From IMG/VR virus record IMGVR_UViG_2718218131_000003, positions 1 through 41,280 of that record: DNA of 41,280 bases; one strand, given 5' to 3'. Position 1 is the stretch's first letter, and the number at the start of each line of letters is the position of its first letter. This stretch comes from a virus (taxonomy: Duplodnaviria > Heunggongvirae > Uroviricota > Caudoviricetes). A model generated the notes under the pieces. The model had not been told where the DNA came from and did no database searches. It saw only the letters and a program-made list of their open reading frames with translations. A program made the position numbers and the translations under genes. Positions 4,433 through 18,257 of this stretch are shown in pieces.

Positions 4433-4490
4433 AAAAAGGGCGGCAGAGCAGTCACGGAGTAAAACTGATACCGCCAAACGTCACCAGAAA
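4433..4490 (-). ncRNA. dicF: DicF small RNA (ftsZ-targeting sRNA)
   Basis: Reverse complement of 4438..4490 reads TTTCTGGTGACGTTTGGCGGTATCAGTTTTACTCCGTGACTGCTCTGCCGCCC, followed by a T-tract (intrinsic terminator hairpin GGCGG...CCGCC); matches DicF as recalled; sits between the ydfA-side genes and dicB as in the dicB operon. Confidence 0.8.
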
Positions 4491-6771: not shown

Positions 6772-7783
6772 AAAGGTGAAAACCGGCAGTTCATCCAGTA
6801 AGTCTGTATTGACCTGGCTTGCTGATATGTGCGGTGCCGATTTGTGTGCATACCCGTCTGTATCTGCACTGGCAGAAGTAACGGAACTGAACAAAAAGAC
6901 TGTGCAGGACAGCTTACGACACCTGATGGAGATTGGGTTAATTGTTGATACCGGTGAGAGAAAAGGCAGAACAAAGCAAATTGTGGTGTACCGACTTATC
7001 GGTGTAGAAGAAAGTGTTGCCGAGCCTGAATACACCCAAAAACGGGAGTCTTTAAAGGTGGGTAAAATTGGTGCTGTTAATAAAAACAGTACCGAAAATG
7101 GTTATGTTTCAGCACAAAACAGACCCAAAAACGGAACTCTTAGCTGCATGGAAAATAACCAAAGACACCCAAATTTTCCATCAAAGACACCCAAAAACGG
7201 ATCACGGAACCCAAAGGAACCCAAAGATCTAAACCCCACACATAACGCACGCGAGAGTGCTCCGACCAGTGAGCAGGAAGTTTTATCGTTACAGGCAGCA
7301 CCCCTTGTATTCCTGGATGGCCTGAGCGAACCCATCGGAAAATTTCCGATGACCGATAGCTGGTATCCGTCACGGGATTTTCGACGACGGGCTGCGTTGT
7401 GGGGGATGGCTTTGCCGGAGACAGAATTTACACCTGCTGAACTTGCCGCCTTCCGGGACTACTGGGCAGCGGAGGGGAAAGTGTTTACGCAGATTCAGTG
7501 GGAGCAGAAATTCGCCCGTCACGTAAATCACGTCAGGGCGCAGGTTAAACCAGTCAGCAAGGGGGGGAGCCATGCAGCAGCACCAGGTGGCACCGCATCA
7601 CGGGCAGTTCAGGAAATTCGGGCAGCACGTGAGCAGTGGGAACGTGAAAACGGATTTATCAGCGACGGAAACGGCGTGGAAGCTGTGGGAACTCATGGGG
7701 GATGTTTATTCGAACCGCTGGACCCAGAAGAACGGGGTCGCACCTTCGAAGCTCTGGATTGCACAGATTGGCGCGATGACTGA
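6743..7783 (+). CDS. replication initiation protein (O-like, N-terminal HTH); 3' end uncertain
   Basis: ATG at 6743 (MSIDALRWAKK...); N-terminal winged-helix region typical of phage replication initiators; C-terminal ~70 codons overlap the P-like ORF in another frame (see finding). Confidence 0.55.
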   Translation: MSIDALRWAKKVKTGSSSSKSVLTWLADMCGADLCAYPSVSALAEVTELNKKTVQDSLRHLMEIGLIVDTGERKGRTKQIVVYRLIGVEESVAEPEYTQKRESLKVGKIGAVNKNSTENGYVSAQNRPKNGTLSCMENNQRHPNFPSKTPKNGSRNPKEPKDLNPTHNARESAPTSEQEVLSLQAAPLVFLDGLSEPIGKFPMTDSWYPSRDFRRRAALWGMALPETEFTPAELAAFRDYWAAEGKVFTQIQWEQKFARHVNHVRAQVKPVSKGGSHAAAPGGTASRAVQEIRAAREQWERENGFISDGNGVEAVGTHGGCLFEPLDPEERGRTFEALDCTDWRDD

Positions 7784-9478: not shown

Positions 9479-9780
9479 GGGTGAGGGTTTATATCGCTGG
9501 TCCGATGACCGGGTATAAAAATTTCAACCGTGAGGCGTTCCACAATGCGGAAGAGGAACTGAAACGGGAAGGGCATACAGTCTTAAACCCGGCAGTGCTT
9601 CCGGACGGGCTCACACAGCCACACTATATGGATATTTGCATGGCAATGATTCGTTGTGTGGATGCGATTTACATGCTGAAAGGCTGGCAGCGGTCAGCAG
9701 GTGCTAAGGCAGAACTGGCGCTGGCGGAGAAACTGGGGCATGCGGTTATTTTCCAGGAGACAACCAGTGAGCGAAATTAA
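9475..9780 (+). CDS. DUF4406-like protein (nucleoside 2-deoxyribosyltransferase-like fold)
   Basis: 101-aa product beginning MRVRVYIAGPMTGYKNFNREAF, the N-terminal signature I associate with DUF4406; start overlaps the upstream stop. Confidence 0.55.
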   Translation: MRVRVYIAGPMTGYKNFNREAFHNAEEELKREGHTVLNPAVLPDGLTQPHYMDICMAMIRCVDAIYMLKGWQRSAGAKAELALAEKLGHAVIFQETTSERN

Positions 9781-10096
9781 TTACCAGGCACTGCGTGAGG
9801 CAGCAGAAGCAATAAAAGTCGTGGCAACGCCGCAAAAATTGCTTGCGTTTCGTATGAAAGTCACACCGCAGGTTGTGCTGGTGCTGCTGGATGAACTAGA
9901 AGCTAAAAACAAACGCATTACAGAACTGGAAGCGAGGGAAGTTCAATTACCGACTCGCTACGACCTTCGATATGGGCACCCAATAAATGCTGATAAGCGA
10001 CATGTCATGATACCTAAAGAAAATGGCAGTTGGCTTTGCCTGATTGACTTAGAACACGCACTACGCGTCGCTGGCATTCGCATCAAAGGAGAGTGA
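9767..10096 (+). CDS. hypothetical protein
   Basis: GTG start at 9767 overlapping the upstream stop; ~109 aa; coiled-coil-like stretch KNKRITELEAREVQL. Confidence 0.45.
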   Translation: MSEINYQALREAAEAIKVVATPQKLLAFRMKVTPQVVLVLLDELEAKNKRITELEAREVQLPTRYDLRYGHPINADKRHVMIPKENGSWLCLIDLEHALRVAGIRIKGE

Positions 10097-10097
10097 T

Positions 10098-10613
10098 ATG
10101 GCGTTAACACACCGCGAACTCTGTCAGATTGCGTACAAGTTCCTTAAGCGCAACGGGTTCAAGGTTTGCTTTCATGACCGCTTTATAGCTGTAACCAGTA
10201 CCGGAGAACAGCCAGATGCTATGGGATTCAGAAATTCAGCATCATGCCTGATAGAGGTGAAGTGTTCTCGTGCTGATTTGTTGGCAGATAGAAAAAAGCG
10301 TTTCCGTAAAAATCCCTCTCTTGGCATGGGCGACTGGCGATTCTTTATTAGTGAGCCGGGAATTATTTCAGTTGAGGATTTACCTCCTGGCTGGGGATTA
10401 CTTCACGTTGTTAACGGAAGAGTACGGAAAGTACATGGATGGCCCAGGGGTAATTGCTGTTGGGGTAATCCTGACGATAAGCCATTTACCGGGAATAAGC
10501 AGGTTGAATGCGATTACATGTTATCTGCATTAAGGCGCATGGAGTTGAGAGGGCACCTTAATGAAATATATGACGGTGTGATTGTTAATAAGAAAGAAGG
10601 AAACGCGGCATGA
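10098..10613 (+). CDS. putative PD-(D/E)xK-fold nuclease-like protein
   Basis: 171-aa ORF with GEQPDAMGF ... CLIEVKCSRADL, i.e. a PD ... ExK arrangement at the spacing seen in restriction-endonuclease-like folds; inference only. Confidence 0.45.
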   Translation: MALTHRELCQIAYKFLKRNGFKVCFHDRFIAVTSTGEQPDAMGFRNSASCLIEVKCSRADLLADRKKRFRKNPSLGMGDWRFFISEPGIISVEDLPPGWGLLHVVNGRVRKVHGWPRGNCCWGNPDDKPFTGNKQVECDYMLSALRRMELRGHLNEIYDGVIVNKKEGNAA

Positions 10614-11347
10614 TCACTATTACCAAAGATCGACTGCTGACAATCAAGCAGTGGCGCGAAATATACGGACCTGGTAGCAACGTTGTACTGCCAGCAGAAG
10701 AAGCGGAAGAACTGGCACGAATTGCTCTGGCATCGCTGGAAGCAAAACCAATAGGTGCTTTCCACATTGCAGAACAGCGAGTTGACGGCACAAGTGACTA
10801 CCTCAAGGATGGAGAATGGCCTATTGATAATGGAATTATTGAGGTCTACGCCGCCTCACCGATGACGGTAGTGCTGAACGATGTATCTGGACCTCTTGCT
10901 CTTGCTTACAAAGAGCTTACACCTGCGATTATGCGCAACCATATCGCTGTATTCGAACGATACGGAATAACCCCAAACGATAGCATCACTACAATTCATG
11001 CGCTTCGAATTGCGCTGGATGGCATAGAGCGGAGCGACGCCATGCTTCATGCCGGAAACTTTAGGGAAAACGCGAATTCGTCAACCAATAATTTTCGGGA
11101 AATTACGGAAACGTCAACCAACTCTCTGGTAACTCCGGATGGTTGGATAAGCTGTAGTGAGCGAATGCCGGATGATGGTCAGCACGTAATTATTTTATGT
11201 GATGGCGCATTCGTTCTTTATGCGCAATATCGAGACGGTGAGTTTTTTGATGTAGTCCGTGATGGTGATGAATTTTTCGAAACACAGAGCCGCAATGTAA
11301 CCGACTGGATGCCGCTACCAGAACCGCCGCAGGAGGTGCGCCAATGA
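10610..11347 (+). CDS. hypothetical protein with C-terminal DUF551-like domain
   Basis: 245-aa ORF; C-terminal segment DGWISCSERMPDDGQHVIILCDG...WMPLPEPP resembles the DUF551 phage domain. Confidence 0.5.
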   Translation: MITITKDRLLTIKQWREIYGPGSNVVLPAEEAEELARIALASLEAKPIGAFHIAEQRVDGTSDYLKDGEWPIDNGIIEVYAASPMTVVLNDVSGPLALAYKELTPAIMRNHIAVFERYGITPNDSITTIHALRIALDGIERSDAMLHAGNFRENANSSTNNFREITETSTNSLVTPDGWISCSERMPDDGQHVIILCDGAFVLYAQYRDGEFFDVVRDGDEFFETQSRNVTDWMPLPEPPQEVRQ

Positions 11348-11427
11348 ACTGGCCTGAAGCATTTGCAATTACAGGCGTTGCTATGGCTATCGCTTTTTTA
11401 GTATATGTTATTTGTCGGTGGGGGTAA
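11344..11427 (+). CDS. small hydrophobic peptide (27 aa)
   Basis: ATG at 11344 overlaps the upstream stop (ATGA); product MNWPEAFAITGVAMAIAFLVYVICRWG has a single predicted TM helix; not in the ORF track (under 60 aa). Confidence 0.35.
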   Translation: MNWPEAFAITGVAMAIAFLVYVICRWG

Positions 11428-11462
11428 AAACGTTCGCCGGGATTAACACCAAAGGAGGGAAT

Positions 11463-11567
11463 ATGTCGGATGATATATCACTGGCAATGGAAGGTGCGCT
11501 GGCTGTTGTTGCTGTTGTGGGCGTTTACTGCCTGGTTGTGTTTTTGATGGATCGACTAGGGAACTGA
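11463..11567 (+). CDS. small hydrophobic peptide (34 aa)
   Basis: ATG at 11463 preceded by AAGGAGGG (11452..11459); product MSDDISLAMEGALAVVAVVGVYCLVVFLMDRLGN has one predicted TM helix. Confidence 0.4.
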   Translation: MSDDISLAMEGALAVVAVVGVYCLVVFLMDRLGN

Positions 11568-11813
11568 ATTCATTACGATATGGGAATTCCCATATCGGGT
11601 AAAAACGGTTTGCGGGAAAAGGAGAGTTAAGTAGAATTGCTGCGGGTGCTTGAGGCTATCTGTCTCAGGCATGAACACCAAAAGGCAGATAGAGAAAAGC
11701 CCCAGTTAACATTACGCGTCCTGCAAGACGCTTAACATTAATCTGAGGCCCAATCTATGTCTCACAAATGTAGGTTAGCCTCTTACGTGCCGAAAGGCAA
11801 GGAGAAGCAGGCT

Positions 11814-11969
11814 ATGAAGCAGCAAAAGGCGATGTTAATCGCCCTGATCGTCATCTGTTTAACCGTCATAGTGACGGCACTGGTAACGAGGAAAGACCTC
11901 TGCGAGGTACGAATCCGAACCGGCCAGACGGAGGTTGCTGTCTTCACAGCTTACGAACCTGAGGAGTAA
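11814..11969 (+). CDS. hokD: Hok/Gef-family type I toxin (HokD/RelF-like)
   Basis: 51-aa product MKQQKAMLIALIVICLTVIVTALVTRKDLCEVRIRTGQTEVAVFTAYEPEE matches HokD (RelF) as recalled; AAGGAGAAG RBS upstream; the in-frame upstream extension from 11757 may be a mok-like leader. Confidence 0.85.
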   Translation: MKQQKAMLIALIVICLTVIVTALVTRKDLCEVRIRTGQTEVAVFTAYEPEE

Positions 11970-12038
11970 GAGACCTGGCGGGGGAGAAATCCCTCGCCAC
12001 CTCTGATGTGTCAGGCATCCTCAACGCACCCGCACTTA

Positions 12039-12070
12039 ACCCGCTTCGGCGGGTTTTTGTTTTTATTTTC
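12039..12070 (+). terminator. intrinsic terminator downstream of hok
   Basis: Hairpin CCCGC-TTCG-GCGGG (12040..12053) followed by TTTTTGTTTTTATTTT. Confidence 0.65.
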
Positions 12071-16530: not shown

Positions 16531-16606
16531 GGCCCTTTAGCTCAGTGGTGAGAGCGAGCGACTCATAATCGCCAGGTCGCTGGTTCAAATCCAGCAAGGG
16601 CCACCA
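16531..16606 (+). tRNA. tRNA with CAU anticodon, ileX-like (tRNA-Ile2, lysidine type) or Met
   Basis: 76 nt, acceptor stem GGCCCTT/AAGGGCC, anticodon loop CTCATAA, GTTCAAATC T-loop, 3' CCA; closely resembles E. coli ileX as recalled. Confidence 0.8.
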
Positions 16607-16607
16607 A

Positions 16608-16684
16608 CCGCCACTAGCTCATCAGGAAAGAGCGTCAACCCTTTAAGTTGAGTGTGCGAGGTTCGAGTCCCCGGTGGCGGTCCA
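16608..16684 (+). tRNA. tRNA, atypical; anticodon loop CCTTTAA (UUU/Lys if canonical), isotype uncertain
   Basis: 77 nt; acceptor CCGCCAC/GTGGCGG, D-stem GCTC/GAGC, anticodon stem TCAAC/GTTGA, T-loop TTCGAGT, 3' CCA; position 33 is C rather than the near-universal U and C1-G72 starts the acceptor stem. Confidence 0.5.
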
Positions 16685-16686
16685 GT

Positions 16687-16762
<76 letters not shown>

Positions 16763-16765
16763 TAT

Positions 16766-16840
<75 letters not shown>

Positions 16841-17723: not shown

Positions 17724-18257
17724 ATGAGCGCAAAAATCAAATACGGCCTGTCAGCTGCTGTTCTGGCGCTGATTGCTGCAGGCGCGTCTGCTCCTCAAAT
17801 ACTTGACCAGTTTCTGGATGAAAAAGAGGGTAACCACACTACGGCATACCGCGATGGTTCCGGTATATGGACCATCTGTCGTGGTGCCACAATGGTGGAT
17901 GGTAAGCCCGTCATACCGGGAATGAAGCTGTCGAAGGAAAAATGCGACCAGGTTAACGCTATTGAACGTGATAAGGCGCTGGCATGGGTGGAGCGCAATA
18001 TTAAAGTACCACTGACCGAACCACAGAAAGCGGGTATAGCGTCATTCTGTCCCTATAACATTGGCCCCGGTAAGTGTTTCCCGTCGACGTTTTATAAGCG
18101 GCTGAATGCCGGTGATCGTAAGGGCGCATGCGAGGCGATTCGCTGGTGGATAAAAGATGGTGGGCGCGATTGCCGCATACGTTCAAATAACTGCTATGGA
18201 CAGGTTATTCGTCGTGACCAGGAAAGCGCATTAGCCTGTTGGGGGATAGATCAGTGA
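17724..18257 (+). CDS. R: SAR endolysin (T4 lysozyme-like, GH24) of phage 21 R type
   Basis: 177 aa; N-terminal signal-anchor-release segment ([19 protein letters not shown]); catalytic E-x8-D-x5-T arrangement ([20 protein letters not shown]). Confidence 0.85.

Follow-up and report, generated by a model that had tools for sequence, protein, structure and literature searches.

Two conserved micro-genes for predicted single-pass membrane peptides lie in different mosaic modules upstream of hok in a lambdoid prophage of Escherichia coli

The window analysed here, a stretch of 41,280 nucleotides (nt) from IMG/VR record IMGVR_UViG_2718218131_000003, is a lambdoid prophage of Escherichia coli, which carries just upstream of its hok/sok locus two very short open reading frames (ORFs), ORF1 of 27 amino acids (aa) and ORF2 of 34 aa. 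These ORFs are parts of different mosaic modules of one lambdoid prophage. The explanation considered reasonably probable is that they are two independent micro-genes, each encoding a single-pass inner-membrane peptide, where ORF1 would be a modulator and ORF2 a non-lethal accessory peptide.

In the initial annotation of this region both ORFs were described as unannotated micro-proteins with a single transmembrane (TM) helix. Both are indeed present, with one hydrophobic stretch each and with conserved reading frames. The word “unannotated” holds for ORF1, which has no call by the Prokaryotic Genome Annotation Pipeline (PGAP) in the RefSeq records examined, and has to be withdrawn for ORF2, which is annotated by PGAP as a hypothetical protein (WP_001278454.1 in the window, WP_001278450.1 in O157:H7, and WP_001278459.1).

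The ORF1 family

ORF1 opens with the ATG at 11344-11346, ends with a TAA stop at 11427 and encodes MNWPEAFAITGVAMAIAFLVYVICRWG, in which one membrane-competent hydrophobic stretch (residues 7-24) is flanked by charges of -1 and +1. Its ATG shares the tetranucleotide ATGA with the TGA (11345-11347) of the upstream 245-aa gene, whose product ends in a DUF551 domain (Pfam PF04448, E = 1.8e-20, residues 178-241). The overlap described in the initial annotation as a coupling arrangement is thereby confirmed, and a point absent from it can be added, namely a strong Shine-Dalgarno (SD) sequence of ORF1 itself, formed by the final codons of the DUF551 gene (P-Q-E-V-R-Q). From the ATGA overlap and the SD together we infer that translation of ORF1 would be coupled to that of the upstream gene. 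The conserved 3' end of DUF551 genes (CCGCAGGAGGTGA..., window positions 11326-11347, with equivalents in the sampled loci L009-L088) shows in its P-Q-E-V codons an extended, near-perfect SD for the next gene, whichever this is.

Relatives of the micro-ORFs were sought by tblastn in phages and plasmids, with DUF551 as bait, with degenerate DNA patterns and by exact-sequence look-up, and the loci sampled in this way are redundant and phylogenetically related. Full-length ORF1 homologues with 52-70% aa identity were found by tblastn in 99 phage records, and a DNA pattern fixing codons 1-7 alone was matched in at least 120 viral contigs. Among the matches listed, the reading frame continues as a hydrophobic ORF to a length of 20-34 aa in 107 of 120, and in 94 of those 107 it terminates in [CF]R[WC][GRW] at exactly codon 27. 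The family defined here is thus an MxWP(E/D)AF-TM-Y..CRWG micro-protein, where W3, P4, A6, and W26 are invariant, G11, A13, A15, A17, Y21, C24, and R25 are near-invariant, and the remaining core varies among hydrophobic residues. The window copy agrees with the whole definition, having 27 codons, the ATGA on an Ea22-like/DUF551 gene, the conserved termini, and G11/A15/Y21/C24/R25/W26.

For 51 distinct intact nucleotide variants the pooled Nei-Gojobori method (NG86) gave proportions of synonymous (pS) and nonsynonymous (pN) differences of 0.364 and 0.120 in the ORF1 frame with a nonsynonymous to synonymous rate ratio (dN/dS) of 0.26, versus dN/dS of 0.89 and 1.99 in the alternative frames, the pooled pairwise values being non-independent and the out-of-frame values serving as the control. 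When the pattern-constrained codons were dropped, codons 8-27 still gave 0.33. By this pattern of substitutions the ORF1 frame is under purifying selection. An nhmmer census, which is independent of ORF calls, counted 66 distinct copies, 63 of them intact and 3 disrupted. Among the intact copies 56 have 27 codons and 7 differ in length, two by exact 6-nt deletions and one by a stop at codon 26, the remaining four belonging to more distant subfamilies, and in the core family both length variants are exact in-frame 6-nt deletions. In Shigella phage POCJ13 (L003, 1545-1628) and in a second locus (L040, 1413-1496) a stop at codon 3 (TGG to TGA/TAG) stands in an otherwise intact copy, which suggests recent inactivation.

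Every ORF1 copy overlaps the stop of its upstream gene by ATGA, and a GGAGG-type motif lies 5-9 nt upstream in nearly all copies, even where the upstream gene differs. This gene is either of DUF551 type (ending ...WMPLPEPPQEV[NR]Q before the stop) or an Ea22-like coiled-coil gene (ending ...GLISVEDVLR or ...NIEQEVNR before the stop). The clustering with hok, which the initial annotation took as a hint to function, breaks down for ORF1 and is upheld for ORF2. Adequate flank is available for 81 distinct contexts of ORF1; hok lies within 1.5 kb downstream in 45 of them and is lacking in 36, the latter including phages with ORF1 near xis/int, the Vequintavirinae phage Av-05, a Punavirus, and 181 plasmids, mostly of about 95 kb and 174 of them non-mobilizable, of which those of about 95 kb are probably P1-like phage-plasmids. 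ORF1 travels with Ea22-like/DUF551 genes and not with hok.

In four other sampled DUF551 genes (L053 at about 1399-1510, L056, L063, and L068) the stop is overlapped in the same way by micro-TM ORFs unrelated to ORF1, of 35 aa (MDSFAKYTIIDWIAFLQVLLIWFIWLTGVDSGLSV) and 40 aa (MNKCNALLYAMVIGFGLVAGIRVYITWESLINLAWSAIRG), and a DUF551 gene with a coupled small membrane peptide may be a recurring architecture. Two candidates for further relatives were rejected. A natural ORF1-DUF551 fusion in Shigella was suggested by 90% clusters shared with DUF551 proteins of 121 aa and 185 aa; these proteins end in ...PPQEVNQ without ORF1 sequence, and the clustering is an artefact. An ORF1 copy after yfdS (DUF551) in K-12 was also ruled out, yfdT being the next gene and no MxWPEA ORF occurring in CPS-53, the K-12 prophage examined.

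Of 5426 complete E. coli genomes, at least 727 (at least 13%) carry ORF1-like DNA, with a median of two copies. A one-genome-per-species scan with the strict ORF1 pattern returned E. coli, Shigella, and one metagenome-assembled genome (MAG) only, a result that is weak on spread, prophage content being strain-specific. In a Pseudobdellovibrionaceae MAG (L217, about position 7655, minus strand) a longer ORF opens with MTWPEAFAIVGVAF... followed by a TM segment, which is either a distant relative or a coincidence.

With 84 nt ORF1 is shorter than the genes that common gene callers usually accept. GenBank lists its peptides here and there, as “hypothetical protein” or “bacteriophage protein,” and an N-terminally extended 45-aa form is found in RefSeq (WP_250221393.1). 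Correct annotation is absent from the phage records inspected, 933W leaving the locus blank. The 36-aa “hypothetical protein” URC08898.1 of ON470583.1 (L214, 699-809) is ORF1 with a 1-nt deletion after ATGAC, called in the wrong frame, and the deletion is either a sequencing error or the mark of a pseudogene. No match to the motif was found in the literature or in the supplements of translatome papers on enterohaemorrhagic E. coli. As far as these searches reached, the ORF1 family is widespread, largely unannotated, and apparently undescribed. It represents an annotation gap, that is, a conserved and selected gene, often multi-copy, which is carried also by reference Shiga toxin (Stx) phages such as 933W.

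ORF2, its translation and its cassette

ORF2 opens with the ATG at 11463, ends with a TGA stop at 11567 and encodes MSDDISLAMEGALAVVAVVGVYCLVVFLMDRLGN, with one membrane-competent hydrophobic stretch (residues 13-29) and, in allele a, flank charges of -3 and 0. The strong ribosome-binding site attributed to it in the initial annotation was found as AAGGAGGG, three nt before the ATG. In the ribosome profiling (RIBOseq) study of O157:H7 strain Sakai (Hucker et al. 2017, PMC5597208) ORF2 is the novel translated gene XECs145, which was scored as a 54-aa ORF from an upstream start and for which a location in the inner membrane with a single TM was predicted. In lysogeny broth (LB) its transcriptome and translatome signals were 79 and 346 reads per kilobase per million mapped reads (RPKM), with a ribosome coverage value (RCV) of 4.35 and a coverage of 0.99; in the brain heart infusion (BHI) control they were 121 and 150 RPKM (RCV 1.14, coverage 0.84), and in BHI under cold/osmotic stress 73 and 1.1 RPKM (RCV 0.01, coverage 0.37) (PMC5597208). 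The initial annotation had named ribosome profiling as a way to check translation, and for ORF2 such data had been published in the Sakai study (PMC5597208). ORF2 had been annotated before as a hypothetical protein, and its translation was on record. The ATG next to the SD, which gives the 34 aa of the PGAP entry, is a better start for it than that of the 54-aa call.

The Sakai study took in only ORFs of at least 30 aa (PMC5597208), and ORF1, having 27 aa, was therefore never assessed in it. The 54-aa XECs145 call covers the last ~25 nt of ORF1, and its near-complete coverage would fit ribosomes on ORF1 without demonstrating them.

In the alignment of the loci the ORF1 stop (TAAAAA) of 933W-type phages runs straight into the hok promoter region (CGGTTTGCGGG...). 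Relative to 933W and to two further loci (L092 and L120), 175 nt have been inserted in the window after the ORF1 stop and before the hok promoter. The insert carries the SD, ORF2, and a palindrome of 22 nt, which is perfect, and it is flanked by the two copies of an imperfect 21-nt direct repeat (Table 1). The junction between ORF1 and hok is a hot spot for insertions, of which there are at least three kinds (L130; L032/L116/L138/L192): the ORF2a cassette, the ORF2b cassette after a CCCCGCA...TGCGGGG hairpin, and the insert of L130 with a terminator-like hairpin CCCCGGATTGATGGTCCGGGG and then TTTTT. A 20-nt direct repeat with 80% identity (D2) joins the ORF2 leader (11434-11453) with the hok leader (11663-11682, ...AACACCAAA...); being short and in two copies it is compatible with chance, or it could be a trace of the origin of the cassette by duplication of the hok leader.

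A second allele of ORF2, allele b, has about 50% protein identity to allele a and unrelated flanks, the homology being confined to the ORF. It probably starts at an upstream TTG with 42 aa, and this 42-aa form stands in databases as “putative membrane protein.” Between the two alleles pS is 0.49-0.61 and pN 0.27-0.32 in frame, where in the other frames pS is about equal to pN; within allele a there are 10 synonymous versus 5 conservative replacements (binomial P = 9e-4); and the 8-codon N-terminal extension of allele b has, as read from the alignment, four substitutions, all synonymous. Judged by these counts the ORF2 frame is selected as coding, and the bias toward synonymous sites in relatives, by which the initial annotation proposed to check the reading frames, is seen for both ORFs. 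The refuting outcomes named there, reading frames not conserved in relatives or an absence of translation, did not come about.

It may be supposed that the ORFs are fortuitous and that their conservation comes from non-coding roles, such as hok upstream regulation, transcription signals, or recombination joints. Compared with shuffled controls, the 185-nt ORF2 region has the better fold (z = -2.8), it contains the perfect palindrome and direct repeats, and ORF1 is very short. Such an explanation is nevertheless highly improbable in view of the frame-specific synonymous excess in both ORFs, the in-frame indels only of the core ORF1 family, the limitation of the allele homology to ORF2, the retention of ORF1 without hok, and the RIBOseq signal of ORF2.

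Linkage of ORF2 with hok/sok

hok/sok follows ORF2 in 16 of 16 contexts with enough flank, and in the loci sampled ORF2 had no other place than the one just before the hok/sok promoter. In the ETEC4088 chromosome (L216, 885-977) allele b is present as a 30-aa ORF with a GTG start and a new AGGAGG SD, together with hok/sok and beside a zeta-toxin family gene; the 5' end of ORF2 is here of a third kind, and neither ORF1 nor a DUF551 gene is nearby.

ORF2 was found in 673 of 5426 E. coli genomes and had seven near-identical matches among 1.84 billion cluster representatives. In deposited phage genomes none was found, either by tblastn, where the low-complexity filter may contribute, or by a distant DNA search. 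ORF2 is lineage-restricted to Escherichia and forms a very narrow family. The 90%-identity clusters of a large protein collection also join ORF2 with xanthine dehydrogenase fragments, an artefact of very short sequences.

This distribution gives some room to the possibility that ORF2 is a third component of hok/sok, which tunes Hok or insulates the hok promoter from read-through, or that the peptides take part in superinfection exclusion or phage defence. Two ORF2 alleles with unrelated flanks and three kinds of 5' end stand only immediately upstream of the hok promoter, even where ORF1 and DUF551 are lacking, the stop codon of allele b lies just upstream of the inferred hok -35, and ORF2 is expressed in the lysogen, as a lysogenic-conversion or exclusion function would need. 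On the other hand, many prophage hok/sok loci (933W, PPompW) function without ORF2, the linkage could simply go back to one or two insertions in an ancestor, carried further together with the hok module, and PADLOC gave no match, the functional link being a conjecture from position. The possibility is considered doubtful but not remote.

Toxin and holin hypotheses

A suggestion of the initial annotation was that the small membrane peptides near hok could be additional toxins or holin-like modulators. In this case one or both would be extra membrane-damaging toxins, type I-like or holin-like, that aid Hok in post-segregational killing, abortive infection, or lysis timing. Both ORFs have the generic type I trait of a small hydrophobic membrane peptide, and in size and hydrophobicity they resemble known type I toxins of 18-50 aa, such as those of the Ibs, Ldr, TisB, ShoB, and DinQ families. 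ORF2 always adjoins hok/sok, and promoter-like sites on the minus strand at 11487->11460 (ORF2 start) and 11428->11400 (ORF1 end) could drive antisense RNAs; the sites are weak, with just 9 of 12 consensus matches, and four were seen in the consensus scan versus 1.5 +/- 1.2 expected.

A Pfam scan at E <= 10 gave no HOK_GEF match for ORF1 or ORF2, and comparisons with Pfam, NCBIfam, PHROGs, and PADLOC yielded only inconsistent weak matches of TM type with E >= 0.0015, which are under the curated cut-offs where these are given. Two of the weak PHROG matches (38566 and 4493) were considered as N-terminally extended ORF1 calls and discarded, other family members matching different PHROGs equally weakly. 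The only antitoxin RNA recovered with Rfam, at the gathering threshold and at E <= 1, was sok/hok-leader (11644-11819).

A further generic trait of type I toxins, repressed translation in growing cells, is not seen. The mRNAs of such toxins are normally kept untranslated, whereas ORF2 has an exposed strong SD and an RCV of 4.35 in healthy LB cultures, and ORF1 has a strong SD with an arrangement that would couple it to an ordinary early gene, hok being absent from 36 of its 81 contexts. A potent toxin would hardly be translated as strongly as ORF2 is in Sakai cells during exponential growth. As the lysozyme gene lies about 6 kb downstream, both ORFs are outside the lysis cassette, a position that does not fit a holin or antiholin. 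According to these facts the toxin and holin suggestions are not sustained, and an extra toxin is regarded as unlikely.

Proposed roles of the two peptides

We infer for both peptides a role as small inner-membrane modulators. ORF1 would be the terminal gene of the Ea22-like/DUF551 early accessory block, made together with the upstream protein by termination-reinitiation or by SD-driven coupling. Its helix is predicted to be oriented N-out/C-in (flank charges -1/+1), with W3 and W26, which are 23 residues apart, placed at the two membrane interfaces. The small-residue faces G11/A15 and A13/A17, together with Y21 and C24, may serve helix-helix packing of the peptide with itself or with a membrane-protein target. 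This packing mode is known from bacterial small membrane proteins, and a modulator is for this reason favoured over a pore or toxin with moderate confidence. ORF2 would be a miniature moron-like cassette of 175 nt translated in the lysogen and is most likely a non-lethal accessory membrane peptide, whose link with hok may be either functional, by tuning Hok or the membrane, or merely positional.

Several points weigh against this explanation. For ORF1, translation is a prediction, two copies carry a nonsense mutation at codon 3 and one a frameshift, so that the gene is dispensable in certain phages, and the O157:H7 allele has A17D, which places Asp in the middle of the helix. ORF1 follows just 19 of 80 DUF551 genes in the DUF551-bait sample and is therefore no obligate DUF551 partner, and the modulator mechanism is drawn by analogy, with a partner that is only predicted. 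For ORF2, the RIBOseq signal may reflect spontaneously induced cells or multi-copy read mapping, and it was scored on the longer 54-aa call and not on the 34-aa ORF. In a consensus scan ORF2 had neither a convincing promoter on the plus strand nor a canonical terminator, the sole terminator-like site nearby (11518-11534) lying within ORF2 itself. The N-flanks of the two ORF2 alleles are opposite in charge, acidic in a and basic in b, and the topology of ORF2 may therefore not be conserved.

Two bolder explanations would make ORF2 a protein partner that gates or neutralises Hok, giving a three-component hok/sok system, and ORF1 a membrane-embedded partner through which Ea22/DUF551 proteins act on the lysis-lysogeny decision; they are considered improbable. 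If the second were true, published exo-xis/ea22 phenotypes would be due in part to an overlooked 27-aa gene.

Deletions or clones of Ea22-like/DUF551 genes, which are studied for the control of Stx-phage lysogeny, may inadvertently remove, truncate, or uncouple the overlapping ORF1. For ORF2, hok/sok as the sole constant neighbour provides a handle on a possible protein-level accessory factor at prophage hok loci.

Prophage setting and features of the locus

The stretch 11300-11620 is 100% identical to strain PK8241 in the sequence search. The features of the locus are collected in Table 1; downstream of hok/sok a DUF968 gene follows on the plus strand.

Table 1. Coordinates of the micro-genes and of neighbouring features in the window
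Feature	Position	Strand	Remarks
Ead/Ea22-like gene	9701-10096	+	
Gene between Ead/Ea22-like and DUF551 genes	10098-10613	+	
245-aa gene with C-terminal DUF551 domain	10610-11347	+	upstream partner of ORF1; ORF list; PGAP “DUF551 domain-containing protein”
ORF1 SD, AGGAGGTG	11331-11338	+	inside DUF551 coding sequence, five nt before ATG; read from sequence
ORF1	11344-11427	+	27 aa
Left copy of imperfect 21-nt direct repeat, GGGTAAAAACGTTCGCCGGGA	11422-11442	+	repeat search family D1, 81% identity, spacing 175 nt
ORF2 SD, AAGGAGGG	11452-11459	+	three nt before ATG; read from sequence
ORF2	11463-11567	+	34 aa
Perfect 22-nt palindrome, CGATATGGGAATTCCCATATCG	11576-11597	.	between ORF2 and hok promoter
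Right copy of 21-nt direct repeat	11597-11617	+	contains inferred hok -35
Inferred hok promoter	11610-11615 (-35 TTGCGG); 11632-11637 (-10 TAGAAT)	+	16-nt spacer; ~7 nt before Rfam leader start 11644
hok mRNA leader with sok target	11644-11819	+	Rfam RF01794, 120 bits
mok	11757-11969	+	
hok (hokD in PGAP)	11814-11969	+	Pfam PF01848 HOK_GEF, E = 1.2e-23
Phage lysozyme (PF00959)	17724-18257		~6 kb downstream of micro-ORFs, past DNA methylase and tRNA genes

The hexamers of the hok promoter are a reading from the sequence, and the consensus scan did not flag them. The 22-nt palindrome occurs once in the window, where none is expected by chance, and folds as RNA into a hairpin of 9 bp. As no T-run follows it on either strand, it does not qualify as a canonical terminator, and it could be a protein-binding site. 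The same palindrome is found with hok and without ORF2 in PPompW phages (L215, about 922-943), downstream of paa/adfO. Elsewhere in the prophage are a gene for the DicF small RNA (4438-4489, minus strand) and a cluster of four tRNAs (16531-16837, plus strand). A sub-threshold Rfam match to isrK lies at 11978-12059, in the region of the hok 3' end and terminator (24.9 bits versus a gathering score of 50, E = 0.004).

Comparison with known systems

With the Hok/Gef proteins (PF01848) both ORFs share the character of small single-TM peptides in the same prophage region, and ORF2 is physically linked to hok/sok. They differ in size, Hok having about 50 aa with a periplasmic C-terminal domain, where ORF1 and ORF2 have C-tails of 3-5 residues. 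Their N-flanks are acidic (-1 in ORF1 and -3 in ORF2) versus basic in Hok, and the predicted orientation is therefore N-out, the opposite of Hok. There is also no Hok/Gef profile match and, in the Rfam searches, no sok-like RNA for either, the ORF list holds no mok-like leader ORF overlapping ORF1 or ORF2, and ORF2 is freely translated in growing cells.

Another class to be compared is that of morons, a concept of Hendrix and Juhala with bor and lom of lambda and gp15 of HK97 as examples. Similarly to a moron the ORF2 cassette is a precise extra insert between two genes relative to collinear 933W-type relatives, and ORF2 is transcribed and translated in uninduced Sakai cultures (PMC5597208), with spontaneous induction being possible. 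It differs in its length of 175 nt, which is far under the typical moron size, and the scan showed no plus-strand promoter of its own. XECs145, WP_001278454.1, and WP_001278450.1 are ORF2 itself, the Sakai version differing by V16I only; compared with the present analysis the XECs145 study describes no function, hok linkage, or allele structure (PMC5597208).

Among the accessory genes of the Ea22/exo-xis kind in lambda and Stx phages ORF1 belongs to the same early non-essential block, standing immediately after the Ea22-like/DUF551 genes. DUF551 is the C-terminal domain of the Stx-phage Ea22 variant V2 (PMC10834534), and in that paper there is no indication of membrane association (the word “transmembrane” is absent) and the 27-aa gene is not mentioned (PMC10834534).

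Finally, ORF1 and ORF2 can be set beside the AcrZ/MgrB-type proteins, from which they differ in being phage-borne and not chromosomal and in having no sequence homology to them. Small enterobacterial inner-membrane regulators, such as AcrZ, MgrB, MgtS, PmrR, KdpF, and CydX, are often missed by annotation, and small phage membrane proteins are likewise an expected class, the two peptides implying no paradigm shift. What both share with the AcrZ/MgrB type, as a functional analogy only, is a length of less than 50 aa, conserved small-residue or aromatic positions that hint at contacts between helices, and a single TM helix.

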